Part shown: positions 1,485 through 28,932 of the stretch, one piece after another
How the letters are laid out: each line of letters begins with the position of its first letter
Numbering within the stretch: position 1 is the stretch's first letter
NCBI GenBank assembly: GCA_965243855.1
Contig: CBDEWE010000003.1
Span: forward strand, 3,206,288-3,270,287
Reading direction: 5' to 3'
From: an uncultured Candidatus Binatia bacterium
GTDB taxonomy: Bacteria; Desulfobacterota; Binatia; Bin18
Length of the DNA: 64,000 nucleotides
Position numbers and translations under genes: made by a program
Notes under the pieces: generated by a model
What the model was told of the DNA's origin: nothing
Seen by the model: the letters and a program-made list of their open reading frames with translations, nothing else
The model's database searches: none

Positions 1485-1512
1485 GCACAGTTTGACAAAC
1501 ATGGCTACAAAA

Positions 1513-1549: not shown

Positions 1550-1615
1550 GTCTGATTTCTATCGTCCCCTCAAAACGGTAATGGTGTTGTAGCGAGAATC
1601 CGTTATCAAAAAGAG

Positions 1616-4192
1616 ATGAAGAAATCGAGAACGTGGACATACGGCCTGCTGATCGCTCTGCTCCTTAGCCTGGGAGTCGCGCCGGTCGGAGCCCAGGACG
1701 CGGAACCCCCATTGGAGGCACGGCAAGAACAGGAGGGAATTGTCGAACTGGAAGGCGTCAGGGTGCTGGGCTCCCGTCATGCAGCGCGTTCAGCCCGGGA
1801 CTCGCTGGTGCCGGTAGACGTGATCCAGAGAGAAGACTTGCAGACCTACGGCATCCGGGACATGGACACGCTGCTGTCGGCCACTGTGCCGTCCTACAAC
1901 GTCAACCGGCGTGCCGGCGATGCCGCCGCACTGGTTCGTCCGGCCAATATGCGTGGCCTGCCGCCCGACTCCACCCTGGTGCTGGTCAACGGCAAACGCC
2001 GGCATCGCGCCGCGGTGATTACCTTCCTGGGCAACGGCATTTCGGACGGCGCGCAGGGGGCTGATATTTCGGTGATTCCGGCCATTGCGCTCAAGCGGCT
2101 GGAAGTGTTGCGCGACGGTGCTTCGTCCCAGTACGGCTCCGACGCCATTGCCGGAGCGTTGAATTTCGTGCTGCGCGACGACCCCGAGGGGGCCATGCTG
2201 GAAACGCGCTGGGGTCAGAACTACCAGGGCGACGGCGACAAGGTAAGTGTTGCCGGCAACCTCGGCCTACCGTTGACCGCGGCCGGCTTTGCCAACTTCA
2301 GCTTCGAGTTCATGAACGTCGACGAGACCAGCCGCAGTGTGCAGCGCAGCGATGCGCTGGAGCTGATTGCCGCCGGCAACGACCACGTTCGTCAGCCGGC
2401 GCAATTTTTCGGCACACCCGCCGTGCAGTATAATTACAAATTCTTTGGCAACCTGGGCCTGGACCTGACCGACAGGCATAGCCTGTATGCGTTTGGCAAC
2501 TATGCCGAACGTAAGGCCGAAGGCCACTTCTTTTTCCGCAATCCCAATACCCGGAGCGGGGTGTTCCGGGGCGACCCGCTTGAAGACGGTACGCCGACGA
2601 TCCGGGTGGCCGACCTGTCCGACAATCTCAAAGGCTGTCCGGTAGTACCAGCCAATCCGGCCGCAGACTATACCAATGTGAATCTGCCGGCCCACTGCTT
2701 TATTTTCAACGAACGCTTTCCGGGCGGTTTTGCGCCGCGGTTCGGTGGCTCTATGCAGGACTGGAGCGTCACCTTCGGCCTGCGCGGGGAACTGTCCGAC
2801 ATGCTGGACGGCTGGCACTACGACATGAGCGCCAGCTTCGGTCGAAACAGCATTGATTTCTTCATGCATAACACCATCAACCCCCAACTCGCCCATATGC
2901 AGACCGCCATTCCGACCTCGTACAAACCCGGCAGCTATAGCGAGTTCGACAAAGTGTTCAATTTCGACATCTCCAGGCCGTTCGACCTGGGCCTCTTTTA
3001 TTCCGCGTTAAACCTCGCCTTTGGGCTGGAGTACCGCGAAGAAGAATTTTCAGCAAACGCAGGTGAGCCGAACTCCTGGAAAATCGAAGAAAGCCTCGCC
3101 CGCCAGGGTTTTGGTATCGGCTCCAACGGCTTTCCCGGCCTCAGCCCCACGCATGCCGGTACGTTCAATCGGGGCAGTTATGCCGGCTATCTGGACCTGG
3201 AAGCCGAGGTGATCAAAAACCTGACCATCGGCCTCGCCGGACGGTATGAGGCGTATGAAGGCATAGCGGATACCCTGGACGGCAAGGTCTCCGCCCGCTG
3301 GCAATTCCTGGCCGATATGGCCGTACGCGGCTCGGTCGGTTCCGGCTTTCGCGCCCCGACTGTGGGCCAAGCGAACGTTCGCAATGTGACAACATCGCTC
3401 ATAAACGGCAGGCTGGCGGACGAAGCCACCCTCTCTCCCACCGACCCGATTGCGCGCCAGAAGGGCGGCAAGGAGTTGGAGCCGGAAAAATCGGTCAACT
3501 ATTCCGTCGGCACGGTCTTCAGCCTGGGTAAGCTGGATGTCACCCTCGACTATTACCGCATCAAGATGCAGGATCGCATCGGGCTGACGAAGACGCTGAC
3601 CCTAACCGGGTCGGATATAGCGTCACTCCTGGCCCAAGGAGTCGTGGACGCGAGCAGTTTTACCGGGGTACGGTATTTTACCAACGACTTTGATACCACC
3701 ACACAAGGTGTCGATCTCGTGGCGACCTACCCGCTGGAGACGTTCGCCGGCAGTACGCTATTCACCTTTGTGGGCAACTGGAACAACACCAAGGTTGACA
3801 GCCGCAATCCAGCCATCATCGACGATGGGCGAGTACGGCAGCTTGAAGACAATCTGCCGGAGTTTCGTTTCTCACTCACGAGTGACCACACCTACGGGCC
3901 GTGGCGGCTCCTGACCCGGCTGCATTTCTACGATAGTTTTTATGCGGCCTATCTAAGAGACTTGCCCATAGAGGCGGGTGAACGCTGGCTCATGGACGCG
4001 GAACTCTCGTACACGTTTATGAACCTGCCGTTCATGGGAGTGCTGACCCTCGCGTTCGGCGCCGAGAACCTATTCGATCAGTACCCGGCCAGAAATCCGT
4101 ATGCACGTCTCGCCGGCGCCAAATACCCAGCCTCGTCACCCTACGGCTTCAACGGCGGCTTCTACTACCTACGGGCTGGCTTCGAGTTTTAA
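1616..4192 (+). CDS. TonB-dependent receptor (858 aa)
   Basis: Signal peptide; TonB-box-like LEGVRVLGSR; plug motif RLEVLRDGASSQYGSDAIAGALNF; C-terminal ...YYLRAGFEF; RBS upstream. Confidence 0.85.
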   Translation: MKKSRTWTYGLLIALLLSLGVAPVGAQDAEPPLEARQEQEGIVELEGVRVLGSRHAARSARDSLVPVDVIQREDLQTYGIRDMDTLLSATVPSYNVNRRAGDAAALVRPANMRGLPPDSTLVLVNGKRRHRAAVITFLGNGISDGAQGADISVIPAIALKRLEVLRDGASSQYGSDAIAGALNFVLRDDPEGAMLETRWGQNYQGDGDKVSVAGNLGLPLTAAGFANFSFEFMNVDETSRSVQRSDALELIAAGNDHVRQPAQFFGTPAVQYNYKFFGNLGLDLTDRHSLYAFGNYAERKAEGHFFFRNPNTRSGVFRGDPLEDGTPTIRVADLSDNLKGCPVVPANPAADYTNVNLPAHCFIFNERFPGGFAPRFGGSMQDWSVTFGLRGELSDMLDGWHYDMSASFGRNSIDFFMHNTINPQLAHMQTAIPTSYKPGSYSEFDKVFNFDISRPFDLGLFYSALNLAFGLEYREEEFSANAGEPNSWKIEESLARQGFGIGSNGFPGLSPTHAGTFNRGSYAGYLDLEAEVIKNLTIGLAGRYEAYEGIADTLDGKVSARWQFLADMAVRGSVGSGFRAPTVGQANVRNVTTSLINGRLADEATLSPTDPIARQKGGKELEPEKSVNYSVGTVFSLGKLDVTLDYYRIKMQDRIGLTKTLTLTGSDIASLLAQGVVDASSFTGVRYFTNDFDTTTQGVDLVATYPLETFAGSTLFTFVGNWNNTKVDSRNPAIIDDGRVRQLEDNLPEFRFSLTSDHTYGPWRLLTRLHFYDSFYAAYLRDLPIEAGERWLMDAELSYTFMNLPFMGVLTLAFGAENLFDQYPARNPYARLAGAKYPASSPYGFNGGFYYLRAGFEF

Positions 4193-4280
4193 GCGGAGGA
4201 GCAGGTATTTTTCTGGCAAAAGAAACAGGAGTCTGTCAGGGCAGATGGATTGATTCAAACGCACTGGAGGGAGAGAGAAA

Positions 4281-6881
4281 ATGAAGACCAAACGATGGCA
4301 ATGTGGGGTGGTAGTGGGACTTTTGGTCGTAACGGGTGCGCTGACAGTCTCGGCCCAAGAGACGAGCCAGCCAGAGCCGGCCGCCACCCAAGACACCGAA
4401 CAACAGGAGTCTGTCGTGGGGCTTGAGTCCCTCAAGGTGATCGGCTCCCGCGTGGCGGGCCGCTCGGCCCAGGACTCCGTAGTGCCAGTGGACATTATTC
4501 AAGGCGAAGACTTACAGACCTACGGCATCCGGGACATGGACTCGCTGCTGTCCGCCAGCGTGCCGTCCTATAACGTCAACCAGCAGCCCATCAGCGACGC
4601 CGCTACCCTGATTCGCCCAGCCAACCTGCGCGGATTACCGCCCGACTCCACCCTGGTGCTGGTCAACGGCAAACGCCGCCACCGCGCCTCGGTCATCCCC
4701 GAATTTGGAGGCATTTCGAACGGGTCGCATGGGGCCGATATCTCCGCTATCCCCACCATTGCGTTGGATCGGGTGGAAGTCCTGCGCGACGGCGCCGCCG
4801 CCCAGTACGGCTCGGATGCCATCGCGGGGATTCTGAACTTCCGGCTGCGTGAAGACCGGGAGGGCCTGACCGTGCAGACCAGCTACGGCCAGAACTATCA
4901 CGGTGACGGCGACAGGGTGAATGTGGCTGCCAACCTTGGACTGCCATTAACCGACAACGGCTTTGCCAACTTCAGCTTTGAATTCACCAACGCGGACGAG
5001 ACCAGCCGGAGTGCGCAGCGCGCCGATGCCCGGGGCTTGATTGAAGCCGGTAACGAGCATGTACGCCGGCCGGCGACCCAGATTTGGGGAGCGCCGGAGG
5101 TGCAGTACGACTATAAGTTTTTCGGCAACCTGGGGTTAGACCTGGAGGAGATCAACAGCCGTGCATATGCGTTTGGCAACTACGCGGAGCGTCGGGTGGA
5201 GGGCGGCTTCTTCTTTCGTAATCCCAACACCCGCGGCGGAATCTTCGATGGTGGCGAGAATCTCTTGGTCGCCGACCTGTCAGACGACCGTCGTGGCTGT
5301 CCTCCAATTGCGAAGAACCCCACGGCCGATTATGTCGCGGCATTGGCGGGCTTGCCCGACCACTGCTTCGCCTTTAACGAGCGGTTTCCGGGCGGGTTTA
5401 CGCCGCGTTACGGTGGAGTCGTCGAGGACTGGAGCATCACCTTTGGCCTGCGCGGGGAGGTTGAGAGCGCGTCGGCACTGCTCAATGGCTGGTTCTATGA
5501 TGCCAGCGCCAGCTTCGGTCACAACAGCGTGGACTTCTTCATGCATAACACCATCAACCCCCAACTCGCGGCCATGCGCACGAATATCCCGACCTCGTAC
5601 AAACCCGGCGGTTACCGGGAGTTTGACAAAGTGTTTAACCTGGACATCTCTCGGCCGTTCGATGTGGGGCTGTTCCATTCGGCATTGAATTTCGCCTTCG
5701 GGCTGGAGTACCGCGAGGAAGAGTTCGAGATTAAATCCGGCGGAGAAAATTCCTGGTATGTTGACAACAGCCCCGGCGGCCTAGCGGCTCAGGGCTTCGG
5801 CATCGGCTCCAACGGGTTTCAAGGCTTCGGGCCGGATATCGCCGGTACGTTCAATCGGGGCAGTTATGCCGGTTATCTAGACCTGGAAGCCGAGGTGATC
5901 AAAAACGTGACCCTCGGCGTCGCCGGGCGGTATGAGGCGTATGAAGGGATAGCGGATACCCTGGACGGCAAGGTCTCCGCCCGCTGGCAGTTGGTGGAAG
6001 CTCTTGCCGTGCGCGGTTCGATCAGCTCGGGCTTTCGCGCCCCGACCGTAGGACAGACCAACTACCGCAAGACCTCGACCTCATTAGAGGGAAACCGGCT
6101 GGTGGACAACGCGATCCTGCCGCCGGACCATCCGGCGGCAGTCCTGAAAGGCGGCAAGCAACTGGAGCCGGAAAAGTCGATCAATTATTCCGTGGGTACG
6201 GTCTTCAGCCTGGGCGACCTCGACGTGACCGTCGACTACTACCGCATCAAGGTGCAGGGCCGCCTCGCCTTGACGAGCAATCTCAAGCTGACGCAGGCGG
6301 ATATCGACACATTACTGGCCCAGGGTATTTCAGACGCGCGCAGCTTCGCGGGGGTGAACTTCTTCACCAATGATTTCGACACCACCACCCAAGGCGTCGA
6401 TGTCGTGGCAACCTATCCGCTCCACACTTTCGCCGGTCAGACCCTACTGACCTTCGTGGGCAACTGGACCGACACCCAGGTGGATAGCTTTAACCCGGAT
6501 ATCATCAATTCCAGGCGACGGCGACAGTATGAAGACGCCCTGCCGGAGTTTCGCTTCTCCCTCACGGCTGACCACACCTGGGGGCCGTGGCGATTTCTGA
6601 CCCGACTGCATTACTACGACGGCTTTTTCGAGGATATCGTTGAGGCTGGCTTGACCTCCATAAACGGGGAGCGCTGGCTCACCGATATGGAACTCTCCTA
6701 CACCTTCAGGAACCTGCCGTTCATGCAGATGGCGACCTTTGCCCTCGGCGCGGAAAACCTGTTCGACCAGTATCCGCGCAGGAGTCGCTGGGCACCTGTG
6801 CTCGGTAATAAATATCCACCCAACTCACCCTACGGCTTCAACGGCGGCTTCTACTATCTCCGAGCCAGCTTTGAGTTCTAG
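4281..6881 (+). CDS. TonB-dependent receptor (866 aa), paralog
   Basis: Same architecture (signal peptide, LESLKVIGSR, plug motif RVEVLRDGAAAQYGSDAIAGILNF, terminal Phe); RBS GGAGGGAG. Confidence 0.85.
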   Translation: MKTKRWQCGVVVGLLVVTGALTVSAQETSQPEPAATQDTEQQESVVGLESLKVIGSRVAGRSAQDSVVPVDIIQGEDLQTYGIRDMDSLLSASVPSYNVNQQPISDAATLIRPANLRGLPPDSTLVLVNGKRRHRASVIPEFGGISNGSHGADISAIPTIALDRVEVLRDGAAAQYGSDAIAGILNFRLREDREGLTVQTSYGQNYHGDGDRVNVAANLGLPLTDNGFANFSFEFTNADETSRSAQRADARGLIEAGNEHVRRPATQIWGAPEVQYDYKFFGNLGLDLEEINSRAYAFGNYAERRVEGGFFFRNPNTRGGIFDGGENLLVADLSDDRRGCPPIAKNPTADYVAALAGLPDHCFAFNERFPGGFTPRYGGVVEDWSITFGLRGEVESASALLNGWFYDASASFGHNSVDFFMHNTINPQLAAMRTNIPTSYKPGGYREFDKVFNLDISRPFDVGLFHSALNFAFGLEYREEEFEIKSGGENSWYVDNSPGGLAAQGFGIGSNGFQGFGPDIAGTFNRGSYAGYLDLEAEVIKNVTLGVAGRYEAYEGIADTLDGKVSARWQLVEALAVRGSISSGFRAPTVGQTNYRKTSTSLEGNRLVDNAILPPDHPAAVLKGGKQLEPEKSINYSVGTVFSLGDLDVTVDYYRIKVQGRLALTSNLKLTQADIDTLLAQGISDARSFAGVNFFTNDFDTTTQGVDVVATYPLHTFAGQTLLTFVGNWTDTQVDSFNPDIINSRRRRQYEDALPEFRFSLTADHTWGPWRFLTRLHYYDGFFEDIVEAGLTSINGERWLTDMELSYTFRNLPFMQMATFALGAENLFDQYPRRSRWAPVLGNKYPPNSPYGFNGGFYYLRASFEF

Positions 6882-6892
6882 CGGAGAAAAGG

Positions 6893-9469
6893 ATGAAAAC
6901 CATACGGTGGCCCTGCTGGGGAACAGCGGCGCTCTTCATCCTGCTGGGAGCAGTGACGGCCAGACCGCAGGAAGTGGAATCGCCCGCGGAGGTCGTCGGG
7001 CTTGACACCTTGCAGGTTGTGGGGTCGCGTCTGGACAGGCGTTCGGCCCAAGACTCGCCAGTGCCGGTGGACATCATTCAGGGGGAGGACTTACAGACCT
7101 ATGGCATCCGGGACATGGACGCCCTGCTGTCCGCCACCGTCCCGTCCTATAACGTCAACCAGCATCCCATCGGCGGGGACGCCACCTTTGTACGACCGGC
7201 TAATCTGCGCGGAATGCCGCCCGACTCCACACTGGTGCTCATCAACGGCAAACGCCGCCACCGCTCTGCCGTTATTGCCTTCTCCGCGGACGGCAGCAAT
7301 CGCGGGACGCAGGGCGCCGACCTGTCTGTCATCCCGGCCATCGCACTGGAGCGGGTCGAAGTCCTGCGCGATGGGGCCGCGGCCCAGTACGGCTCGGACG
7401 CCATCGCCGGTATCCTGAACTTCAAGCTGAAGGAGGCGTCCGATGGCCTGTCGCTCCACACCAGTTGGGGCCAGACCTACCACGGTGACGGCGACAAGGT
7501 GAATGTCGCCGCCAACCTGGGTCTGCCGCTGACCGACAACGGTTTTGCCAACTTCAGCTTCGAGTTTCTGAACGCCGACGAAACCAGCCGCAGTATACAG
7601 CGCGACGACGCGCGGGGGCTGATCGAAGCCGGCAATATGCATGTGCGCCGACCCGCGGCCCAGATCTGGGGGGCGCCCGAAATCCAGTTCGACTACAAGT
7701 TCTTCGGCAACCTCGGCCTGGACCTGGAGGCGCTCGACGCCCAGCTGTACGCCTTTGGCAACTACGCCGAGCGTAAGGTGGAGGGCGGCTTCTTTTTCCG
7801 TAACCCCAACACGCGCGGCGGGATATTCAGGGGCGACCCGCTCGGAGACGGCACGCCCACCGTCCGGGTGGCCGACCTGTCCGGCACTGGCCTCGGCTGT
7901 CCCGCCGTGCCTGCCAACCCGGCGGCCGACTACACCGGCGTGAATCTGCCCGAGCACTGCTTCCTCTTCAACGAGCGCTTTCCCGGCGGTTTCACACCTC
8001 GTTTTGGCGGCTACCTCCAGGACTGGAGCATCGCCTTTGGCCTGCGCGGGGAATTGGAAGGCGCATACGGCTTGCTGAACGGTTGGTCATACGACGCCAG
8101 CGCCAGCTTCGGCTACAACAGTATTGATTTCTTCATCCACAACACCATCAACCCGCAGCTGGCCGCCATGCGCACCGCTATTCCCACGAAATACCGACCC
8201 GGTGGAAACGCGCAGTTTGAGCGGACGTTCAACCTGGATATTGCCAGACCCCTGGATATCGGCCTCTTCCACTCTCCACTGAACGTGGCCTTCGGATTTG
8301 AGTATCACATGGAGGAGTTCGAACAGAAAGTTGGGGAAGCGCAGTCCTGGTTCATCGATGAAAACCTGAGAAATCAGGGTTTTACCATTGGCTCCAACGG
8401 GTTTTCGGGCTACCCGCCGCAGTCGGCCGGCGTGTTCGAACGCAACAACTATGCGCTGTATCTGGACCTGGAAGCTGAAGTCATACAGTCCCTCAGCCTC
8501 GGCCTGGCCGGGCGATATGAAAACTTCGACAGTGCCATAGGAGAGTCGCTGAACGGCAAGGGGTCGGTCCGCTGGCAACTGCTGGACGCTCTGGCCCTGC
8601 GCGGTTCGGTCGGTTCGGGCTTCCGCGCCCCAACACCGGGACAGGCGAACATCCGGAAAATCAACTCGCAGTTTACCACCGCAGGCCTAGTCGACCAAGG
8701 CATTTTCCCCTCGCATCACCCGGTCTCGGCCTTCTTCGGAGGCAGGCCGCTGGAGTCGGAAAAATCGGTCAACTATTCCGTCGGCAGCGTGTTCAACTCG
8801 GGTGACTTCAGTCTGACCGTCGACTATTATCGGATCAAAATTCAGGATCGCATCGGACTGACGCAGGATTTCAGAGTCCCGGACGAGCAGCGGGCGGCCT
8901 TCAACCGCCTCGCTCCCGACGCGAGTACCCTCACCTCGGTGCGCTACTTCACCAATGCATTTGACACGACCGCGCAAGGGGTCGATATCGTGGCGACCTA
9001 TCCGCTGGCAACGCGGGTCGGTGACACCATGTTGACCTTTGCCGGCAACTGGAACCGGCTGAGGCTCGACCGCTTCGACCCGCACGTCATCAATACCAAG
9101 CAGGTGCATCAGATAGAGGATGGCTTGCCGCAATTCCGGTTTTCGCTGACCGCGGATCACACCTACGGGCCGTGGCGCTTTCTGACCCGCGTGTATTTCT
9201 ACGACGAATTTTTTGAAGCCCACGCCAACACCGAAACGCGTTTCCTGACCGCCGGGGAGCGGTGGCTGATGGATGTCGAAGCCTCGTACACCCTGCTGAC
9301 GCTGCCCTTCACCCAGGCAGTGATTCTTGCAGTAGGCGCGGAAAACGTGTTCGACACCTACCCGCGCAGAAATCCGTACGCGCGCGATACGGGCGCGAAA
9401 TACCCGGAATCCTCACCCTACGGCTTTGGCGGCGGCTTCTACTACGTACGGGCTGGCTTTGAGTTTTAA
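6893..9469 (+). CDS. TonB-dependent receptor (858 aa), paralog
   Basis: Same architecture (LDTLQVVGSR, plug motif, ...YYVRAGFEF end); stop overlaps stop of convergent gene. Confidence 0.85.
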   Translation: MKTIRWPCWGTAALFILLGAVTARPQEVESPAEVVGLDTLQVVGSRLDRRSAQDSPVPVDIIQGEDLQTYGIRDMDALLSATVPSYNVNQHPIGGDATFVRPANLRGMPPDSTLVLINGKRRHRSAVIAFSADGSNRGTQGADLSVIPAIALERVEVLRDGAAAQYGSDAIAGILNFKLKEASDGLSLHTSWGQTYHGDGDKVNVAANLGLPLTDNGFANFSFEFLNADETSRSIQRDDARGLIEAGNMHVRRPAAQIWGAPEIQFDYKFFGNLGLDLEALDAQLYAFGNYAERKVEGGFFFRNPNTRGGIFRGDPLGDGTPTVRVADLSGTGLGCPAVPANPAADYTGVNLPEHCFLFNERFPGGFTPRFGGYLQDWSIAFGLRGELEGAYGLLNGWSYDASASFGYNSIDFFIHNTINPQLAAMRTAIPTKYRPGGNAQFERTFNLDIARPLDIGLFHSPLNVAFGFEYHMEEFEQKVGEAQSWFIDENLRNQGFTIGSNGFSGYPPQSAGVFERNNYALYLDLEAEVIQSLSLGLAGRYENFDSAIGESLNGKGSVRWQLLDALALRGSVGSGFRAPTPGQANIRKINSQFTTAGLVDQGIFPSHHPVSAFFGGRPLESEKSVNYSVGSVFNSGDFSLTVDYYRIKIQDRIGLTQDFRVPDEQRAAFNRLAPDASTLTSVRYFTNAFDTTAQGVDIVATYPLATRVGDTMLTFAGNWNRLRLDRFDPHVINTKQVHQIEDGLPQFRFSLTADHTYGPWRFLTRVYFYDEFFEAHANTETRFLTAGERWLMDVEASYTLLTLPFTQAVILAVGAENVFDTYPRRNPYARDTGAKYPESSPYGFGGGFYYVRAGFEF

Positions 9470-12764: not shown

Positions 12765-13607
12765 TTAGGGTAATCCGGCGCCGGGTACCTCAACCTGGAC
12801 CGTTTCGATAGCAGCTTCAGACTTCCCCTGGGCCAACTCCTCCACGGTTGTGGCTGCGGTCAGCATGAAGAGCGTACGACGCCCTTCCCCGCCCAACATG
12901 CAGGCAACGGCCCGTTTGTCCGGGACAGGAATACGATGCGTGACCTCTCCGCCGTCTTTGACCCGAATAAATTCACCACTCCCAAACGAACTCACCCAGA
13001 CCGCCCCTTCGGCGTCCAGACAAATCCCGTCAGGAGTCGCTTCCCCCAGCTGGGCAAATACGCGCCGGTCCGACAGCGAACCGTCGGCGGCGATGCTGAA
13101 AGCGCTCAGACAGTTCGCAAATGTCTCGGCAACAATGAAGGTGCTCCCGTCCGGACTGATCACGCTGCCATTCGGGAAGCTCAGACCGTCCGCGACCACC
13201 CGAGTCTGTCCGTCCGGCGTGACCATGACAATGTTCGCCGGCTGGGCTTCTTCACCGCCCATCAAGTCGTAGCCAAAGCTCCCGATATAGGATCGGCCCT
13301 GGGCATCAACGACCATATCATTGATATCACCCCGGACGAGCGCAGAGACATCTGCGACTTCCGCGAGACCGTTCGGGTCCTGCCGGAGCAGTTTCCTATC
13401 GTGCATAGAGACGATGAGCAGGCGTCCATCCGGCAGAAAGCCCAGTCCCGACGGGCGCTGTGGCACCGTTGCGACCAACTCGGTGTTGCCCTGCGCGTCA
13501 ACCGTGAGCACTTTCTCGGCAAACATGTCGGAAACCCAGAGTTTACCGTCGTGCCAACGCGGGCCTTCAAGAAAAACAAATCCATCTGCGAGAAGCTGCG
13601 GAGTCAT
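12765..13607 (-). CDS. SMP-30/gluconolactonase/LRE family protein
   Basis: 280 aa; N-terminal ...LADGFVFLEGPRWHDGKLWVSD and beta-propeller repeats typical of SGL family. Confidence 0.8.
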   Translation of the reverse strand: MTPQLLADGFVFLEGPRWHDGKLWVSDMFAEKVLTVDAQGNTELVATVPQRPSGLGFLPDGRLLIVSMHDRKLLRQDPNGLAEVADVSALVRGDINDMVVDAQGRSYIGSFGYDLMGGEEAQPANIVMVTPDGQTRVVADGLSFPNGSVISPDGSTFIVAETFANCLSAFSIAADGSLSDRRVFAQLGEATPDGICLDAEGAVWVSSFGSGEFIRVKDGGEVTHRIPVPDKRAVACMLGGEGRRTLFMLTAATTVEELAQGKSEAAIETVQVEVPGAGLP

Positions 13608-15174: not shown

Positions 15175-15229
15175 CCCTCTCCCTCTGGGAGAGGGCTAGG
15201 GTAAGGAGACCTGCTTCTTACAGCAGGTC
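15175..15229. terminator. pair of hairpins between convergent genes (CCCTCTCC-ctctg-GGAGAGGG; GACCTGC-ttcttaca-GCAGGTC)
   Basis: Two GC-rich stem-loops; second overlaps the stop codon of the minus-strand gene. Confidence 0.5.
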
Positions 15230-16111
15230 CAACCCCCTCCGCTCCCATTCCATGGCCACCACCCGGCCCAACCCCGACTCCGTAATATATAAGGTCCTCG
15301 AATCGACACCGCCAAAGGCGATATTCGTGACCGCTCTGTCCTCACTCGGAATCCGGTCGACCTGCTGCCCGTGCGGATCAAAGACAATAATGCCCCCTCC
15401 CAGCACACCACAGACCAGAACATAGCCTGCTTCATCCAGACAAAAGCCATCGGGATAATGGCCGGTCGGCAGTTGACAGAATGGTCGGCGCTGGTCGAGT
15501 TCACCTGGGGCAAGAGCGGGAAAGGCACACAGGCTGGCGGCAAAGGTTTCCGCTACGAGCAGGGTTTTACCGTCCGGGGTGAGGCCGATGCCGTTTGGAT
15601 GTTGAAGATTGGTAGCGACACGCCGAATCCAGGTCCCATCCGGACTGGCGTAGTAGACGCTGCCCTGGCGCCGCGTTGGTGCATCCATTGGTTCAGGCCG
15701 CGTGGGATCGCGCTGGATCGGATCGGTAAAGTAGAAATTCCCTTCAGCATCAAACACCAAATCGTTTGGTGCGCTGAGTTGCACGCCGTCACATGAGGTG
15801 TATAAGCGTTCGACCTTACCCTCGGCGTCAATCCGCTCAAGGCGTCCGGTCTCGTAATCCGGAGCCGGTCCAACGGGCAGCCCCTTGCGCCAGCGAAAGC
15901 CGCCGTTATTCGTGACGTATAGGGCTCCGTCCGGCCCTCGGGCGGCCCCGTTCGGACCACCACCCGGAGTGACGAAGGTGGAGAGTGTTCCGTCAGGCGC
16001 AATTTTCCGAACGCGGCCCCCACGGATTTCCACACAATACACGCTGCCGTCCGGGTCACAGACCGGACCTTCCGGGAATGCCAAGCCGGTTGCAATGATG
16101 GTGTGACTCAT
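15218..16111 (-). CDS. SMP-30/gluconolactonase/LRE family protein
   Basis: 297 aa; N-terminal TGLAFPEGPVCDPDGSVYCVEIRGG typical SGL start. Confidence 0.8.
   Translation of the reverse strand: MSHTIIATGLAFPEGPVCDPDGSVYCVEIRGGRVRKIAPDGTLSTFVTPGGGPNGAARGPDGALYVTNNGGFRWRKGLPVGPAPDYETGRLERIDAEGKVERLYTSCDGVQLSAPNDLVFDAEGNFYFTDPIQRDPTRPEPMDAPTRRQGSVYYASPDGTWIRRVATNLQHPNGIGLTPDGKTLLVAETFAASLCAFPALAPGELDQRRPFCQLPTGHYPDGFCLDEAGYVLVCGVLGGGIIVFDPHGQQVDRIPSEDRAVTNIAFGGVDSRTLYITESGLGRVVAMEWERRGLDLL
16047..16092. repeat. 46-bp perfect direct repeat, copy A (inside 5' coding end of SGL gene)
   Basis: CCGTCCGGGTCACAGACCGGACCTTCCGGGAATGCCAAGCCGGTTG identical to 17847..17892, exactly 1800 bp away. Confidence 0.9.
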
Positions 16112-16145
16112 AAGGGCGAGCGTACCCGGCGGACGCTCAAAAATT

Positions 16146-16691
16146 TCAGGCCGCTTGCTGCTCTTTTTGTTTCAGCAACTTGCCAGCAATCTGGTCAATA
16201 ACCTGGTCGGCCAGCACGCGGACTTCATCCTCGAGCTTGGGCTGAATAGGATGCGGGACCAGAATGGGCTCATACTGAGGCATACCAAGAGCCGCACATT
16301 GGGCGTGCGCGGCGCTCAGAAACTCCGTGGTCGTGATATTTGCAGTCGGAATCCCTCTCTCTTCCAGCGCGATGACATCGTGCGAACTGCACGATATACA
16401 GCCGCCTCAATCGCTGAGCGCTTCAATGACCGCGTCGCACTTTTCTTGTAGCTCCTGCTGAATAGCTTCAGCCGCAGGCCGACCCGGGGTCAGTTTCGTC
16501 CGCCGCAGCACCTCCTTGACACCGTACTGCTCGCGCAGGATTTCCTCCAGGCGGTCCAGGAAGAATGCGCCTTTTGCCTTGTTAATATCCAAGAGACCAA
16601 TCGTGGTACCGGACAGGCTGTCCAGCCGGGTCGCAAAGACCTTGGGCGATTGGTCCGCCTGCGAGGTCGGGTCTAGTAATACGGTTCCCAT
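16146..16691 (-). CDS. candidate selenoprotein with U-G-G-C (UxxC) motif; in-frame TGA at 16407..16409 read as Sec (UGSC-family-like)
   Basis: ORF 16407..16691 stops at TGA, but the same frame stays open 87 more codons with good coding character to TGA at 16146; SECIS-like hairpin 10 nt after the UGA; 16 bp after the upstream gene. Confidence 0.6.
16375..16398 (-). promoter_or_regulatory. bacterial SECIS-like stem-loop downstream of in-frame UGA
   Basis: mRNA UGA-GGCGGCUG-UAUAUCGUGC-AGUUC-GCACGAUGU: 9-bp stem (one G-U), 5-nt loop containing GU, starting ~10 nt after UGA. Confidence 0.5.
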
Positions 16692-16706
16692 ACATTCCTC
16701 CTTTAC

Positions 16707-17795
16707 TTATGTATGAATCTCCTTTGTCGTAATGGTACTCCCGGAGCTCCCCCGGACCAAGCCTGGAACAGCCGCAGAAAAACGACCAGCCGTTCCACCC
16801 GCGACAACAATAAGAATACTCTCCGGTGCGGGAAACTTCGGATAGAGCGTGTCATCAGTCGGCGGTTCGGTCTGGGCGTTGACGCCGGCCAACATACTCA
16901 CTCCAGCGCCCTCTCCGCCGTTGACCCCAGGCCGCAGTTCACGCAGCGGGCGACGGATGTGTTCAAATAAAAATTGACGGAGATCATTTTTAGACCATCC
17001 ATCCTGGGCAAAGGTCTTGGCATGCTCCGGTCCGACAATCAGCGCCGTATCCGAGAACACCGGAAAATTCTTGTGATTCCAGACCGAGGCCATAGTCCAG
17101 CCAAGCGAGAGGGCTAACTGCTCTGCACTGCGACTGGCATGGTCATTGATCTGAAGCGGGGAGTGACCACCAAACAGGGTGACGGTATTCTGTTCCGGAC
17201 GAAAACCTTTCTCGACGTGCAGCGGCTCCCACGGACTCTCCTCCTCGGCCTCGCCAATACAGAACGTAAATTGGGCTGGATGGCCCAGGGTTGCCTTGCA
17301 AATCTCTTGGGGCTTTGCGCCGCCAATGTTGAGAATGATCAGGCGCAACGCACGCCCGATGGTGGCATTCGCCCGAAATCCATGGCCCAGGGCATTATGC
17401 CCGCAATTCACCCCAATGGTATGGCGTATGGGACCGTTAATAATCGTCAGTGGGGTTGCCGAGAATGTGGTGACATTAATAGCGTGGGCCGCAAACTGTT
17501 CTTCACACAGGGCTTCCACCGCGGCAACGACAACCGGAAAATACGACGCCTGACACCCCGCCATCACCGCATTAATCGCAACTTTTTCAAGACTGGCCGG
17601 TCCATAGTTGGGTCCCACCGTCCCCAAGAGCTCTTGTGGGTCGCGGTCCACTGTGGCGAGCAGCGCCATAACACGCTCTGCGGTTGGCGGAACAACCGGC
17701 AGCCCATCGGTGAGCCCACTTGAAAAGAGGGCTTCAAAAGGGTCGTTCTCCTGAATATCGATGGGTTGTGAATGGAATGCGGCGGCGTCCGCCAT
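16707..17795 (-). CDS. hypothetical protein (362 aa), first gene of the selenoprotein operon
   Basis: Long ORF with strong RBS GGAGGGGAG; no family recognised by eye. Confidence 0.6.
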   Translation of the reverse strand: MADAAAFHSQPIDIQENDPFEALFSSGLTDGLPVVPPTAERVMALLATVDRDPQELLGTVGPNYGPASLEKVAINAVMAGCQASYFPVVVAAVEALCEEQFAAHAINVTTFSATPLTIINGPIRHTIGVNCGHNALGHGFRANATIGRALRLIILNIGGAKPQEICKATLGHPAQFTFCIGEAEEESPWEPLHVEKGFRPEQNTVTLFGGHSPLQINDHASRSAEQLALSLGWTMASVWNHKNFPVFSDTALIVGPEHAKTFAQDGWSKNDLRQFLFEHIRRPLRELRPGVNGGEGAGVSMLAGVNAQTEPPTDDTLYPKFPAPESILIVVAGGTAGRFSAAVPGLVRGSSGSTITTKEIHT

Positions 17796-17846: not shown

Positions 17847-17892
17847 CCGTCCGGGTCACAGACCGGACCTTCCGGGAATGCCAAGCCGGTTG
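17847..17892. repeat. 46-bp perfect direct repeat, copy B (5' leader of the 16707..17795 operon)
   Basis: Identical to 16047..16092; in the SGL reading frame it encodes TGLAFPEGPVCDPDG followed by a stop. Confidence 0.9.
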
Positions 17893-17968
17893 GCAATAAC
17901 AGCGCAACTGAAGCAGAGTGCATGGCAATCAAGAAGTCAGCGCAATGCAGACTGAATCGGAGATAAAA

Positions 17969-17985
17969 TAAACATTCAGAATGTT
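17969..17985. promoter_or_regulatory. 17-bp perfect palindrome AAACATTCAGAATGTTT in AT-rich divergent promoter region
   Basis: Lies in the ~200-bp AT-rich island (17940..18140) between the minus operon and the cytochrome gene; TTGACA at ~18040. Confidence 0.4.
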
Positions 17986-18184
17986 TCTAGCCTTTATATA
18001 CATATAACTGTCTGTATTTAATTATGAAATGAAATATACTTGACACCCCCTAAATTAGGTGTTTATGAGTATTTCGTATTCATTATTCGTTAAAGCGACT
18101 TTCAGAAAATCCCTAATGGCGATCCACGATCACATGTGGATTACGGGGGCAGAACTCTCAGAAATATAGACAGATTCCTTATCC

Positions 18185-19620
18185 ATGCTCCGCCTCTTCC
18201 AGTCTCTTATTATCCTGCAACTGGCTCTCCTCTTCGCTCTGCCCGTAGGAAGCTTTGCACAAACCCCACCTGGGGAGCGCTCCGCCATGAGCGATCTCCA
18301 GATGAGCCAAGAAGATATTGCCAACGAGCGCGTCTCGCCCTATACGTTGCGCCGCAAGGGTGGCCTGATCTTCTCAACCCCGTTTACCAAGCTTGATGGG
18401 TTCGGGCACGCACCCTTTAGCGCGCACGAGCCTGATTTTCTTGAAACACGTCCCACTCTTCAGGGAAACGGGGCTTTTTTACGCGTCAACGGGCTCGACG
18501 CTCAGACCTGCATGGAATGTCACTCGGTCCTGAGCAATGCGGTTGTGCCTTTCCGGTTTGGTGTCGGTGGGGTTGGATCAGGCAGTTCGAATGTGATGTT
18601 TAAGCCGACATGGATTGACCCAACGACCGGCGGCAAAGAAAATTTCAACGGTCGGTTCATTAACCCTCCCTTTTTATTCGGCTCGGGTGGAGTGGAGCTG
18701 TTGGGAAAAGAAATGACCCTGGATTTGCAGCAGCTCAGAGCGCAGGCGCAACAAAGCCCCGGAACACGGGTCTCCCTAGTTTCCAAAGGGGTCTCTTCGG
18801 CAGCATATCCTGCCAACAGGACGGCACGTGCGATACCTCACAGGTCGAAGGGGTGAATACCGATCTGGTGGTTCGCCCCTTTGGCCGCAAAGGTGAGTTC
18901 GCCACCGTCCGTGCATTCGATGTGGAAGCAATGGAGTTCCACTTTGGCATGGAGCCCGTGGAACTGGTTGGGGACGGGGTGGACAGGGATGGCGATGGCG
19001 TGATCAACGAGGTCACTATCGGCCAGATATCCGCCTTACATATTTTTAATACGACCCTCACGCCGCCGATTATGCACCTCAGCCGTGAAGCCCAAGACGG
19101 ACAGGAGCTGTTTGCACACATCGGCTGTGCGGACTGTCATATCCCGTCCCTGACAACCAACAGTCCGATGCTGACCTATAGTTTTCCCGAAGTGCCGACA
19201 GACCCGACCGCCAACGTCTTCTACCGGGTCGATCTGAGAGACTATCCCACGTTTTTTGAGGAGGCGGCGCAGGGGGGCCTCGTGGTCCCGCTGTTCGCCG
19301 ACCTCAAACGGCATGACATGGGGTCGGCGCTGGCCGAATCATTCGGAGAAGAACTGGCCGCCCAGTTCACCACCGCCCGGCTGTGGGGCGTGGCCGATAC
19401 CGCCCCCTACCTCCACGACGGACGAGCGCTGACCCTCACCGAGGCGATTACGCTCCACGGCGGGGAGGCGCAAGCGGCCCGCGATGCGTTTGTCGATACG
19501 CTGGACACTCAGGAAAAGGAGACCCTCTTAACCTTTCTCCGCTCGCTCAGGACCCCTCACGCAGACGACGTGGCCCCTGATCTTCGGTCGGAGAGTAACG
19601 GAAGAGACTGGGAACATTAG
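18185..19620 (+). pseudogene. di-haem cytochrome c peroxidase-like protein (two CxxCH), interrupted by a frameshift near 18750-18765
   Basis: ORF1 18185..18856 (signal peptide, CMECH) and ORF2 18853..19620 (GCADCH) are in different frames; ORF2 frame reads through from 18664; shift maps near a CCCC run at 18757-18760. Confidence 0.55.
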
Positions 19621-19711
19621 AGCAAAGAACGATGCGGTGTAGCGCGGCTCTCTCTTCCCCTTTAGGAGTGCGGGCTGGAAGCCCGCAGGCGACCATCCTG
19701 GCCGCCCTCCC
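19621..19711 (+). repeat. ~90-nt 3'-UTR repeat element, copy A (hairpins GCGGGC-tggaa-GCCCGC, GGCGACCA..TGGCCGCC)
   Basis: About 90% identical to reverse complement of 22381..22469; starts immediately after stop of the cytochrome gene. Confidence 0.75.
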
Positions 19712-19889
19712 AGGAGGAGAGCCGCCCACCTCCCCTCCCAGGCCGTTTGGAGCAAGCCCCTGTCCTTCCCGACGAGAGCGGACTGGTACGGCTACAATTT
19801 ATCGTGAAACGCTCCAGCAGAATCTCCCCTCCAGGCGCGCTTCTCGGTATCCTCTCGGACACGGCTATCAATCTTATGGGTCGGCCTGC

Positions 19890-22524: not shown

Positions 22525-23721
22525 TCAGATAACGCCCGCTTGTTCGAGCTTTTGCAGCTTTTCTGTGGAGAGGCCCAGCAGACCCTGGTAAACGTCTCCG
22601 TTGTGCTGACCGAGCAGGGGGGCCGGGGAGACTTCGACCGGGGAGTCGTCGAGTTGGACCGCGCAGCCGGGCATGGTGATGGTGCCGCGGGTTGGATGTT
22701 CGACGGTGGCGACCATGCCGCGTTCACGCAGCTGCGGGTGGGTGAAAATATCGTGCGAGTCAAAAACCGCTCCACACGGCACACCAGCCTTTCCAAATCG
22801 CTCCATGACCTCGAACTTGGTGTACCGTGTGGTCCAGGCGCAAATAATGTCATACACCTCGTCAAAGCGAGTGTTGCGCTCGGACGTGGCGGTATAGCGC
22901 GGATCGCCGATCAAATCTTCGCGCTCAATCGTGCGTAGCAAACTCTCCCACATCCGCGGCGTCGTGGACATGAGATAGACGTAGTCATTGGGTCCGCCCG
23001 GCGCGCAGGGATAGGTGTCTGTGGGGGCGGCATGGCTGAGGCGGTTACCGGTGCGCTGCACCACAGCATCGGCCTGGAGATGGTGGCGCATGGGCACACG
23101 CACATAATTGACTACCGCATCCTGCATGGACACTTCCACGTGCTGCCCCTTGCCCGTTTTGCCCCGTTGCAACAGGGCCGCCAGAATGCCGACGGCGCAG
23201 TGGATACCCGTACCGGTATCGCCGATAGTCGGGCCGGGTTTGAGCGGCGGCGAGTCGGGCAGGCCGGTAATGCTCAGGGCTCCGCCGGTTGACAGGGCAA
23301 TCGAGTTGAAACTCTTATACTCGCTCCACGGCCCGGATGTGCCAAAGCCCTTGATGGTGGCATAGATCAGCCGCGGGTCAAGCTGCTGCAAGTCCGCATA
23401 GCCGAGGCCCAGCCGTTCCATGGTGCCCGGAGAGAAATTCTCCAACACGACATCGACCTGCGGGATCAGGGAGCGGAAGAGATCACAGCCCTGCTCGGTC
23501 TTGAGATTGAGGGTAATGCTGCGTTTATTGGCGTTCAGCAGAATAAAGAAATGCGAATCGAGCCCCGGCTCGTTGGTCAGAAAGTTCCGTCCCGACTCGC
23601 CGGTGCGGGGTGGTTCGACCTTAATCACATCCGCACCAAGAAAGGCCAAGAGCTCCGTACACGACGGACCGGCCTCAAAATGCGACAAATCGAGAATACG
23701 CACATGATCGAGAGCGAGCAT
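22525..23721 (-). CDS. CoA transferase family III (CaiB/BaiF) protein
   Basis: 398 aa; MLALDHVRILDLSHFEAGPSCTELLAFLGADVIKVEPP family III N-terminal signature. Confidence 0.85.
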   Translation of the reverse strand: MLALDHVRILDLSHFEAGPSCTELLAFLGADVIKVEPPRTGESGRNFLTNEPGLDSHFFILLNANKRSITLNLKTEQGCDLFRSLIPQVDVVLENFSPGTMERLGLGYADLQQLDPRLIYATIKGFGTSGPWSEYKSFNSIALSTGGALSITGLPDSPPLKPGPTIGDTGTGIHCAVGILAALLQRGKTGKGQHVEVSMQDAVVNYVRVPMRHHLQADAVVQRTGNRLSHAAPTDTYPCAPGGPNDYVYLMSTTPRMWESLLRTIEREDLIGDPRYTATSERNTRFDEVYDIICAWTTRYTKFEVMERFGKAGVPCGAVFDSHDIFTHPQLRERGMVATVEHPTRGTITMPGCAVQLDDSPVEVSPAPLLGQHNGDVYQGLLGLSTEKLQKLEQAGVI

Positions 23722-26529: not shown

Positions 26530-28932
26530 CTAATCCAGCACCTTCTCTTCTTTGAGCCGCGCAATCTCTTCCGGCGCATAGCCCAGCACGTCCCGCATGA
26601 TCTGGTCCGTATGCTGGCCGAGCAGTGGCGCGGGCGCGCGAACGCCGTTGGACGATTCGGCCAGTAACCAGGGGATACCCATATGCAGCCGGGGGCCGAC
26701 TTCCGGATGCGGCAGGCGCGCAAACGCTCCGCGCGCCTCCAACTGCTCGTCCTCCGCCAGGTCAGACGCACTCAGCGCCGGAAAGGCGGCCACACCCGCC
26801 TCCTGGAGCATCTGCGTGACTGCCCAGCGGTCGCGCTGGCTGGTCCACGCGGTCAGCAGTTTTTCCAGCTCGTCTTCGTTTGCTTTCCGGTCGGAAGCGG
26901 TATGAAAGCGCGAGTCACTCGCCAGTTGGGGCTCGCCCATAGCCTGACACAGGGCCTGCCATTCTTCGTCCGAGCCACACGCGATCGAGACCCAGGCGTC
27001 TTCTCCCGCGCAACGAAAACAGTTATGCGGAGCCATGACGGGGTCGTGGTTGCCGTCGCGCTCGGGCTGGGTGCCGTTCATGACGTAGTCCATCCAGCCC
27101 TCGGACACCAGGGCCGCCACCGCGTCAAACAGCGACACATCAATATACTGGCCCTGGCCAGTGCGTTTCCGGGCGACCAGTGCGGCACAGACTGCCGCGG
27201 CAGCGTGAATGCCGCTGTTCGGGTCGCCGTACGAAATCCCGACCTCTTGTGGCGAGCCGCCCTGATAGCCGCTCAGGGAAGATAAACCGCTGACCGGAGC
27301 CATGGCCGGGCCATAGCCCATGTACTTTTTCCGCGGGCCGGAATGGCCGAAGCCCGAGATCGAAGCCACAATGATATCCGGCTTGATCTGCTTGAGCTCA
27401 TCGTAGCTGAGCCCCAGATTGTCCATCACGCCGGTCGCAAAATTATCCACCACTACATCGCTCTGCCTGATGAGCTCTTTGATAATCTCCATCCCCTTTG
27501 GTTTGGCGACGTTGAGGAGCAGACTCTTCTTGCCCATGCTCCACTCGTTAAAAATACCGGAGCGATTCACCCCGGCTTCCATACCCTTCGGGTAGATCGG
27601 CAGCCGACGGGTAATATCCACCCGGGCGTTGGATTCGATCTTAATCACCTCGGCCCCCAGGTGGGCCAGATGCATGGTGCCAAACGGCCCGGCCCAGACC
27701 CAGGTAAAATCCGTCACCCGCACGCCTGCCAGGGGCAGACGGGAGTCGGGGGTTGGGGATTGGGGGTTGGAGGGACGTGACGGGCTTGGCAGTTCGGCGA
27801 AGACTTCGGCAGTATGCTCTCCCAGTTGTGGGGCGGGACGGCGAACCTGCCACCACGGCTCGCGCAGTCGGTAGGGTGCACCGAGCTGGGTCAGCTTGCC
27901 CGCTTTGGGATGTTCCACATCCACGAAAAACCCGCGCGCGCGGAGATGCTCGTCTTCGGCGAGCTGGGCCATGGTCTGCACCGGAGCAAAACAGATCCTC
28001 CGCTCCTGGCCCATCCGAAACAGCTCGTGCACCTTCTGCTGCTGGAACCACTCATCCAGATACATTTTGAGCACGTCCTGGTTCTTGGCCCGGTCTATCC
28101 CCCCTTGAAAAATCTCCCAGCTCCCCCACTCGGGATTCCCCATGAGGTCAACCAAGCGTTCCCACTGGTCCTCTTCCGCAACGACTAGAAAGATCAGGCC
28201 GTCCTGACACTCATAAATACCCCAGGGGTACAACAGCCGTTTGCCCAGGCGCGAGGCGACCCGCTCGCTATACGTGTAATGGACGAAGCTCTGTTCCATG
28301 AAAGAGGACACATAGGCTTGAGTGCTAAGATCAATATGTTCTCCACGCCCGGTCTCCAGCGCCCGATAATAGGCACCAAGCGTTGCGACCGTGGCGGCCA
28401 GCCCGCCTTGGAATCCCGTCTGCTGGCCATACGCCTTGAGGGGCGGCAGGTCCGGATAGTCCGACGCCCCAGGGCTCAACCAGGCCCAGCCGCCGGCATT
28501 GGCGACGGTGATGTCGTACGCCTTGTAGTCTTTATATGGCCCAGTCAGACCAAACGGCGTAATCGAACACATCACCAGCCGTGGGTTGAGTGCCCGAAAG
28601 GCCGGATAATCGATACCCAGTTCCGCCATCCGTGGTGGCGCATAATCATGGACCAGGATATCGGCCCACTGCACGAGTTGAGCGAGGCGGTCTTGCTCCT
28701 GCGCCACGTCAAGCGTGACACTGCGCTTATTGGTATTGAGGGATAAGAAGAGGCCGCTCTGCTCGGGGTCTGCTTTACCACCAGGAAAAGGCCCGCGCCA
28801 ACGGGACTGGTCGCCGCCCGGTTCTTCGGCTTTGACGACATTCGCGCCAAGGTCAGCCATGAGTTTTGTGGCGTAGGCTGCCGAAGCAAGATGGCCGAGT
28901 TCCAGCACTTTGACATCTTCGAGACCCTGCAT
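26530..28932 (-). CDS. tandem-fused CoA transferase family III protein (two CaiB/BaiF domains, 800 aa)
   Basis: Domain 1 MQGLEDVKVLELGHLASAAYATKLMADLGANVVK...; Pro/Ser linker; domain 2 LAGVRVTDFTWVWAGPFGTMHLAHLGAEVIKIES... Confidence 0.8.
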   Translation of the reverse strand: MQGLEDVKVLELGHLASAAYATKLMADLGANVVKAEEPGGDQSRWRGPFPGGKADPEQSGLFLSLNTNKRSVTLDVAQEQDRLAQLVQWADILVHDYAPPRMAELGIDYPAFRALNPRLVMCSITPFGLTGPYKDYKAYDITVANAGGWAWLSPGASDYPDLPPLKAYGQQTGFQGGLAATVATLGAYYRALETGRGEHIDLSTQAYVSSFMEQSFVHYTYSERVASRLGKRLLYPWGIYECQDGLIFLVVAEEDQWERLVDLMGNPEWGSWEIFQGGIDRAKNQDVLKMYLDEWFQQQKVHELFRMGQERRICFAPVQTMAQLAEDEHLRARGFFVDVEHPKAGKLTQLGAPYRLREPWWQVRRPAPQLGEHTAEVFAELPSPSRPSNPQSPTPDSRLPLAGVRVTDFTWVWAGPFGTMHLAHLGAEVIKIESNARVDITRRLPIYPKGMEAGVNRSGIFNEWSMGKKSLLLNVAKPKGMEIIKELIRQSDVVVDNFATGVMDNLGLSYDELKQIKPDIIVASISGFGHSGPRKKYMGYGPAMAPVSGLSSLSGYQGGSPQEVGISYGDPNSGIHAAAAVCAALVARKRTGQGQYIDVSLFDAVAALVSEGWMDYVMNGTQPERDGNHDPVMAPHNCFRCAGEDAWVSIACGSDEEWQALCQAMGEPQLASDSRFHTASDRKANEDELEKLLTAWTSQRDRWAVTQMLQEAGVAAFPALSASDLAEDEQLEARGAFARLPHPEVGPRLHMGIPWLLAESSNGVRAPAPLLGQHTDQIMRDVLGYAPEEIARLKEEKVLD

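Follow-up and report, generated by a model that had tools for sequence, protein, structure and literature searches.

A UGSC-family gene of a Candidatus Binatia bacterium very probably encodes selenocysteine at an in-frame UGA codon

Introduction

Does the UGA codon at which a short open reading frame (ORF) of an uncultured Candidatus Binatia bacterium appears to end stop translation, or does it specify selenocysteine (Sec)? This question is raised by a locus at positions 16146-16691, on the minus strand, of a 64,000-nucleotide (nt) stretch of contig CBDEWE010000003.1 (assembly GCA_965243855.1, positions 3,206,288 to 3,270,287), the whole of which we refer to as the window. A reading of the nucleotide sequence made without database searches (the original prediction) had proposed that the gene runs through the UGA and encodes a selenoprotein. 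The uncultured phylum Candidatus Binatia has attracted interest with regard to methylotrophy and alkane metabolism.

The family in question, the "UGSC-containing protein", is a computationally defined selenoprotein family without known function (PMC1976440, PMC2398784; Zhang & Gladyshev 2007, 2008). It was initially recognised in Hyphomonas neptunium and in metagenomes of marine origin (PMC1976440). In the Global Ocean Sampling data, it ranked among the selenoprotein families of highest abundance, being represented by 255 Sec and 21 Cys forms (PMC2398784). Binatia were not discussed as a host phylum in the literature that we searched on UGSC. Here, we conclude that the window gene is very probably a genuine Sec-encoding UGSC-family gene, based on its family match, the conservation of the TGA, the existence of Cys homologues, the ratio of non-synonymous to synonymous substitution rates (dN/dS) and a conserved hairpin; the proposed identities of the gene and of its RNA element rest on comparative evidence.

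Results

The reading frame across the UGA codon

An ORF scan of the window returned a minus-strand frame that runs from an ATG at 16691..16689 to an in-frame TGA at 16409..16407, in agreement with the ORF (16407..16691) and the stop codon of the original prediction. Past this TGA, the same frame contains 86 sense codons before it meets a second TGA stop at 16148..16146. The extension of the frame to 16146 had thus been recognized correctly, while the 87 codons ascribed to it are the 86 sense codons plus the stop. The full-length gene (16146..16691, minus strand) comprises 181 codons, including the putative Sec95, and the TGA stop at 16146-16148. Its translation across the UGA reads ...CDAVIEALSD-U-GGCISCSSHDVIALEERGIPTANITTTEF...KEQQAA (stop), with ...AVIEALSD-U-GGCISCSSHDVIALEER as the Sec-spanning stretch, and matches the translation around the U quoted previously. 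The UGA itself (16407..16409, minus strand), if read as Sec95, heads the motif U-G-G-C-I-S-C, and the 86 codons that follow (16149..16406, minus strand) make up the C-terminal half of the protein. The first in-frame start codon after the UGA is that of Met137, with none earlier, so that the conserved motif can be produced only by read-through.

Family membership and conservation of the UGA codon

For all protein-profile scoring of the 181-amino acid (aa) product, Sec was modelled as Cys. The product matched NCBIfam NF041046 with 147.7 bits (cut-off 125; residues 28-170 on model positions 2-144 of 147) and Pfam PF24696 with 159.1 bits (cut-off 25; residues 5-172 on model positions 2-170 of 172). 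Both entries describe a "UGSC family (seleno)protein", a family for which the NCBI annotation pipeline has a model, and both matches span both sides of the UGA. The likeness to the UGSC family that had been noted for the U-x-x-C motif (here UGGC) is therefore supported by scores above both curated cut-offs, and the protein aligns end to end, not merely over its N-terminal 94 residues.

A scan of species-representative genomes yielded more than 570 UGSC loci, 80 of which were fetched and compared together with L001 and L002. The best-matching loci stem from Candidatus Binatia metagenome-assembled genomes (MAGs), with 93-96% aa identity across all 181 residues; locus L003, for example, is 96% identical over residues 1-181. 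The Sec column is occupied by TGA in 81/81 related loci, and the TGA-bearing loci come from Binatia, Acidobacteriota, Actinomycetota, Myxococcota, Chloroflexota and Alphaproteobacteria (about six phyla). Binatia genomes carry two to three TGA-containing UGSC paralogues each. In the window as well as in all 80 intact related loci, 78-106 codons follow the TGA before the frame closes. The 86 codons past the UGA of the window gene align with full-length homologues as far as the C-terminus. Relative to the Binatia relatives, these 86 codons show a dN/dS of 0.05-0.17, no different from that of the N-terminal half, which indicates that they are under purifying selection and agrees with the coding character previously noticed in them. 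Residues that are invariant in the family alignment include C98, C101, H104, D105, H147, P148 and Q150 in the post-UGA half.

Across the loci, the motif takes the form U-G-[S/A/G]-C-[T/I]-[S/T]-C-[S/C]-x-H-D. The UGGC version is limited to one Binatia subclade (the window, L001, L003-L007 and L016), UGAC is found in other Binatia loci and UGSC in all remaining loci. This distribution marks UGGC as a variant, particular to one clade, of the motif U-G-x-C-x-x-C.

A different explanation would be that the TGA is a real stop, the locus being a pseudogene, a nonsense mutant or the product of a sequencing error that encodes a 94-aa fragment only and is followed by a decaying frame. Indeed, gene callers end the gene at this codon. 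A profile search found at least 7973 UGSC family members, and most of those among the matches listed are gene calls of about 92-106 aa that end at ...EAL(A/S)D, next to about 20 full-length members. A frameshift just past the TGA can also occur, as seen in L030. However, a decaying frame is at odds with a TGA that is shared by all 81 loci from several phyla, with a downstream frame that is intact in 80 loci and the window, with a post-TGA dN/dS as low as that upstream, and with the location of the most conserved residues of the family (C98, C101, H104, D105, H147 and P148), all of which lie beyond the TGA. The comparative data effectively refute the notion of a real stop already, and we consider it barely conceivable.

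The locus L030 (3001-3533 of the locus; Binatia MAG contig CAXXHG010000040.1) retains the TGA and has a frameshifting indel within the region of the hairpin and the C-x-x-C motif. Either it is a pseudogene or long-read assembly introduced an error; two further intact UGSC paralogues are present in the MAG that carries it.

Homologues with a different residue at the Sec column address the identity of the inserted amino acid. The Cys homologues P0191, P0192 and P0195-P0205 read DCGSCTSCS, with Cys exactly on the UGA column, as had been suggested as a check on the Sec assignment. Among the full-length homologues there are also singletons with Trp (P0190), Arg (P0001, P0208) or Gly (P0193, P0194) at this column. 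Their codons (TGG, CGA and GGA, respectively) are each one base off TGA, and they may be sequencing errors, inactivated copies or real substitutions.

A SECIS-type hairpin downstream of the UGA codon

A candidate bacterial selenocysteine insertion sequence (bSECIS) hairpin lies within the coding sequence at 16369..16405 (minus strand), as indicated by folding, pairing conservation and synonymous-site constraint. Its core (16375-16397) consists of a 9-base pair (bp) stem (16389-16397 paired with 16375-16383; arms AUAUCGUGC and GCACGAUGU, with one G.U pair among the nine) and the loop AGUUC (16384-16388); a lower helix prolongs the hairpin to 16369-16405. The stem begins at the 10th nt after the UGA, i.e. 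after a 9-nt spacer, and the apical loop starts 18 nt after the UGA. The original prediction had described the nine base pairs and the GU-containing AGUUC loop correctly, but its 5' arm was one nucleotide too long.

[quoted passage not shown] The window hairpin conforms to it, with a G at loop position 2 followed by U and a distance of 18 nt. A 41-nt element had a minimum free energy of -17.4 kcal/mol, compared to -10.9 +/- 2.7 kcal/mol for dinucleotide shuffles (z = -2.4; 3/200 shuffles equal), and a wider 81-nt stretch around the hairpin was unremarkable in its folding (z = -0.13). Among the 1960 TGA triplets of the window, 0.9% precede a bSECIS-compatible hairpin with a stem of at least 9 bp. 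Other ORFs interrupted by TGA were also looked for in a crude scan of this window (58% GC), which returned many candidates attributable to chance; when these were intersected with bSECIS-like hairpins, the UGSC gene alone was left, and by this criterion the window contains no further selenoprotein candidate.

All intact loci have the hairpin after their UGA. When 73 distinct post-UGA sequences of 51 nt each were aligned without gaps, five core base pairs were formed in 73/73, and in-register pairing amounted to 83%, compared to at most 52% when the 3' partner columns are slid. Pair 15-33 shows a double-sided change from G-C to A-U in eight sequences, pair 18-30 is A-U once (L081) and G-U in six sequences, and pair 21-27 is U-A once (L060). 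Each of these three pairs connects third codon positions. Double-sided changes occur at four pairs in total, which was matched by 11/500 shuffles. The loop is AGUUC in Binatia; in most other phyla it is GUG and starts at 19 nt.

Only codons +5 to +9, which lie inside the hairpin, have frozen synonymous sites. Cys+6 is encoded by TGC in 80/81 sequences, compared to 52 TGC and 29 TGT at Cys+3; Ser+7 is AGU in 79/79 sequences, compared to six different codons at Ser+2; and Ser+5 is UCG in 57/58 sequences. Selection on the protein cannot produce such frozen codon choice, which selection on an RNA helix and on the G-U of its loop can explain.

It could be argued that the hairpin is no functional SECIS but a by-product of self-complementary codons for the S-C-S-x-H-D peptide. 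Most stem pairs are invariant, as would be expected in that case, the covariation score does not exceed that of shuffled alignments (0.070 versus 0.076) and no Rfam model matches. The score can be accounted for by a helix that is nearly invariant and overlaps highly conserved codons, and we give more weight to codon usage than to covariation. A by-product would leave unexplained, however, why codon choice is fixed beyond what aa conservation demands, as at Ser+7 and Cys+6, and why the lone TGT at Cys+6 and the lone UCA at Ser+5 are compensated on the opposite arm (L060, L081). Moreover, residue differences between clades (I/T at +4, S/V/L at +8) keep the pairing or just resize the loop. We therefore consider it quite improbable that the hairpin is a mere by-product, and take it to be a likely SECIS.

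Probable decoding of the UGA as selenocysteine

The UGA at 16407-16409 would accordingly not be taken as a stop in our proposal. Instead, the hairpin would act as a bacterial SECIS and recruit SelB with GTP and Sec-tRNA(Sec), selenocysteine would enter at position 95 and translation would continue to the true TGA stop at 16146. The SelB step is modelled on the established bacterial mechanism. TGA terminates 15/52 long ORFs in the window, as well as the UGSC gene itself; since it is a normal stop elsewhere in the window, the proposed recoding is local and no change of the genetic code.

The UGA might also be read through without Sec, by genome-wide reassignment to Trp or Gly or by a leaky near-cognate tRNA in a host that lacks Sec machinery. 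The window as such would allow for this: in line with the original prediction, which had reported no Sec machinery within it, a tRNA scan of the 64 kb found no tRNA and a scan of 33 window ORFs against NCBIfam found no SelA, SelB or SelD. The singleton homologues with W, R or G, one base from TGA, could likewise be seen in this light. Reassignment, however, is difficult to reconcile with the use of TGA as a stop in the 15 long ORFs and in the UGSC gene itself, 87 codons on, and simple read-through has no need of a conserved hairpin with frozen synonymous sites, which SelB-dependent decoding does need. In addition, abundant full-length homologues replace Sec by Cys, its usual counterpart, and Binatia genomes retain their two to three TGA-containing paralogues. 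We consider read-through of this kind highly improbable, prefer decoding as Sec, and infer that the host has Sec-decoding capacity.

The window also encodes a YdiU/SelO-family protein adenylyltransferase (61337-62956, plus strand; NF000658, 599 bits) that ends in ...SCSS and carries Cys where eukaryotic SelO has Sec. This protein stands outside the Sec-insertion machinery.

A conserved partner protein encoded upstream of UGSC

The UGSC gene is preceded by a gene for a 362-aa protein (16707..17795, minus strand), the first of the operon, whose stop lies 15 nt before the UGSC ATG; the gap contains an AGGAGG. The two-gene arrangement described originally was thus confirmed. This partner gave no Pfam or NCBIfam match even at E <= 1, and a single-sequence search of the PDB returned chance-level matches only. 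It belongs to a large family that lacks both a Pfam model and a solved structural relative, with 5116 clusters at 50% identity (E <= 1e-3), or 1256 at E <= 1e-30, and carries an invariant Cys81 within the motif NAVMAGC.

In tblastn searches, a partner homologue was found in 75/82 loci, nearly always directly upstream of UGSC and on the same strand, often with overlapping partner stop and UGSC start. The partner is the sole UGSC neighbour that is conserved across phyla. Single-chain partner-UGSC fusions also exist (P0316, P0322, P0328, P0374 and P0441), and their gene calls end exactly at the Sec codon. The partner and UGSC are thus most likely co-expressed and work as a complex. The partner family also contains tandem double-partner proteins of about 710-740 aa (P0309).

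In 41 non-Binatia loci, the partner is extended at its N-terminus by a domain of some 120 aa that contains an invariant C-x-T-C as well as a VPT loop. Used as a profile, this domain matches 206 thioredoxins of the PDB (best E = 3.8e-8), its CxxC coinciding with their active site and VPT corresponding to the cis-Pro loop; acidobacterial versions score as AhpC/Redoxin (E = 1e-17). The thioredoxin-fold domain is in-frame in the partner among loci L028-L082 (e.g. L045:1089-2516 and L042:1562-2998) and is followed by a conserved RPGCGS linker motif; the 362-aa partner of the window lacks it.

The 2008 paper on the family reports a domain "Unknown_1" fused to UGSC (PMC2398784). Judged from the fusions, "Unknown_1" is probably the same protein as our partner. 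In the literature searched, we found no description of the partner operon, of the thioredoxin fusion or of a link to GrdB.

Predicted structure and possible function

A Cys-form homologue that is 46-48% identical to the window protein is predicted to adopt a Rossmann/flavodoxin-like alpha/beta domain. According to this homologue model, the invariant segment headed by Sec95 (U-G-x-C-x-x-C-S-x-H-D) would lie between strand 3 and the next helix. Searches of PDB sequences with UGSC gave chance-level matches only for the single sequence and nothing for the profile.

Between 21 and 23 of 25 UGSC members matched the Sec region of GrdB/GrdF models (best E-value 1e-5; query residues 71-154 against model positions ~323-401), a weak yet consistent, region-level similarity. 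For TIGR01917, the match reached 21.4 bits against a cut-off of 602 and covered model positions 325-401 of 431 only; PF07355 was not reported for the UGSC protein even at E <= 1. Membership in the GrdB/GrdF/PrdB family (TIGR01917, NF040794, TIGR01918, PF07355) was rejected on account of the 21 bits scored against the cut-off of 602. UGSC would be no more than a distant relative of the Sec-bearing region of GrdB/GrdF.

By analogy with the GrdB/PrdB "protein B" selenoproteins, UGSC and its partner could constitute a two-subunit thiol/selenol-dependent reductase, a function to which we assign even chances. The proposal builds on the linkage to the partner, the partner-UGSC fusions, the thioredoxin domain and the GrdB-like Sec region. 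In such an enzyme, the partner would bind the substrate, with the invariant Cys81 of NAVMAGC supplying the site. Sec95 would act as the nucleophile and would form a selenenyl-sulfide with Cys98, Cys101 would serve as the resolving residue, and a thioredoxin-type donor, fused to the partner in other phyla and separate in Binatia, would re-reduce the site.

With the same Sec decoding, a different chemistry is conceivable, in which the regularly spaced residues U95-x2-C98-x2-C101-x2-H104 would provide ligands for a metal ion or cluster, without a selenenyl-sulfide relay. Such a site would be akin to the Se-ligated site of [NiFeSe] hydrogenase or formate dehydrogenase. We consider a metal site unlikely, and maintain the thiol/selenol-dependent reductase as our working proposal.

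A more far-reaching version of this proposal is that UGSC and its partner represent an unrecognised, widespread Sec-dependent reductase, its selenoprotein an offshoot of the Sec domain of the glycine/proline-reductase "protein B" subunits, its substrate-binding partner a fold without a solved relative, and its electron donor a thioredoxin that is fused in most phyla but separate in Binatia. We put this forward tentatively and would sooner doubt than assert it. If it holds true, one of the most abundant orphan selenoprotein families of aquatic and soil aerobes would provide the catalytic centre of a new reductase, either C-X bond-cleaving or of the disulfide type.

Neighbouring genes and other features of the window

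A gene for an SMP-30/gluconolactonase-like (SGL) protein (15218..16111, minus strand; PF08450, 5.6e-49) follows 34 nt past the UGSC stop. No terminator-like site was found in this gap, and the SGL gene is possibly co-transcribed with the operon. It occurs downstream of UGSC only in the window and nine closely related Binatia loci, and is thus a clade-specific neighbour. A second SMP-30/gluconolactonase-like paralogue (12765-13607, minus strand) is located within 3.5 kb of it.

The partner-UGSC operon is flanked by a perfect 46-nt direct repeat (16047-16092 and 17847-17892), the copies being exactly 1800 nt apart. Its upstream copy duplicates the 5' end of the SGL gene (codons TGLAFPEGPVCDPDG) and is joined straight to the upstream region of the operon (...CCCGGACGG directly followed by TTGACAGC...). 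In L006, both copies are present (43/46 identical) and the ATG is still kept. L003, L004 and L007 lack window positions ~17848-19860, with homology breaking exactly at the repeat. An assembly artefact and a mobile cassette that delivered the operon were both rejected as explanations, since relatives show the duplicated SGL 5' end at the rearrangement junction. Compared among these loci, the repeat is best described as a recombination or rearrangement footprint; recombination between the SMP-30 paralogues could have given rise to it.

The segment of about 2 kb that is absent from L003, L004 and L007 contains a di-haem oxidoreductase (DHOR, PF06537)-like gene (18185-19620, plus strand) that is split into two overlapping ORFs of 223 and 255 aa in different frames. 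It is a frameshifted gene or a pseudogene, and DHOR is fragmented in L001 too. Further away, four consecutive TonB-dependent receptor genes form a paralogous array (15-9469, plus strand; 489, 858, 866 and 858 aa), the 489-aa ORF probably being cut by the window edge. An 800-aa ORF (26530-28932, minus strand) contains two to three stretches that match family III CoA-transferases of the formyl-CoA / succinate-glutarate type, best over residues 397-781. This ORF seems to encode a CoA-transferase that arose by duplication or fusion, and a single-domain paralogue is located at 22525-23721.

Discussion

Several observations speak against the above conclusions and have to be set beside the evidence for them. 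Concerning Sec decoding, the 33 window ORFs scanned contain none of SelA, SelB and SelD, the covariation score of the hairpin stays at the level of shuffled alignments, and Rfam gave no match, neither over the whole window at gathering thresholds nor at E <= 10 over 16100-16750. As Rfam has no model for bacterial SECIS elements of this type, the latter result is uninformative either way. Concerning function, the structural model covers a homologue and not the window protein, with a predicted local distance difference test (pLDDT) score of ~62 in the active-site loop, and the reductase model rests on gene context and on weak profile matches that fall well short of the GrdB cut-offs. Finally, a 2026 review still lists UGSC as uncharacterised, no member having been studied experimentally (PMC13188914). 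On the side of Sec decoding stand a hairpin that agrees with the published bSECIS consensus and is conserved in all 73 distinct homologous sequences, and a codon that is conserved across phyla and aligned with Cys in homologues.

For the annotation of the window, the gene would have to be called as a selenoprotein of 181 aa, with Sec specified at its UGA, in place of the 94-aa call; thousands of UGSC database entries suffer from the same truncation. The use of selenocysteine by Candidatus Binatia is implied. Few selenoprotein families are as abundant in environmental metagenomes as UGSC, the function of which is uncharacterised (PMC2398784, PMC13188914). Taken together, the partner, the fusions, the thioredoxin domain, the GrdB-like Sec region and the predicted non-thioredoxin fold turn UGSC into a testable two-component redox system.

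In the Grd/Prd systems, i.e. the glycine, sarcosine, betaine and D-proline reductases, the substrate-specific "protein B" operates together with another subunit encoded alongside it and receives electrons from a donor of the thioredoxin type. The "protein B" selenoproteins (GrdB, GrdF, GrdH and PrdB) share a UxxC motif with the window protein, in which it reads UGGC, and GrdB and PrdB have been listed as UxxC selenoproteins (PMC2398784, Table 2). In contrast to GrdB, which has ~430 aa, the UGSC protein has 181 aa; the 362-aa partner lacks detectable similarity to the pyruvoyl proenzyme subunits GrdE or PrdA; and the host of the window does not belong to the Stickland-fermenting anaerobes. The window ORFs that were scanned include no grd or prd genes, and there is no grdA, grdC or grdD nearby.

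Thioredoxin-fold selenoproteins (the Trx-like, Prx-like and DsbA-like families known from the marine selenoproteome) likewise carry a UxxC at a strand-to-helix junction, and a "Trx-like fold" was guessed for UGSC in 2008 (PMC2398784). We rejected this identity, as the fold predicted for the homologue is not that of thioredoxin.

The hairpin resembles bacterial SECIS elements of the E. coli fdhF/fdnG type in being a stem-loop inside the coding sequence, immediately 3' of the UGA. It shows no sequence resemblance to the E. coli elements, and no bulged U was identified.

The closest comparison is with the published UGSC family itself. The window gene shares with it the UGA at the family's Sec column, the UxxC motif, a SECIS hairpin just downstream and the rarity of Cys forms, and differs from it in reading UGGC instead of UGSC. 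It is thus a further member, with a minor motif variant, of a family that has been known since 2007-2008.

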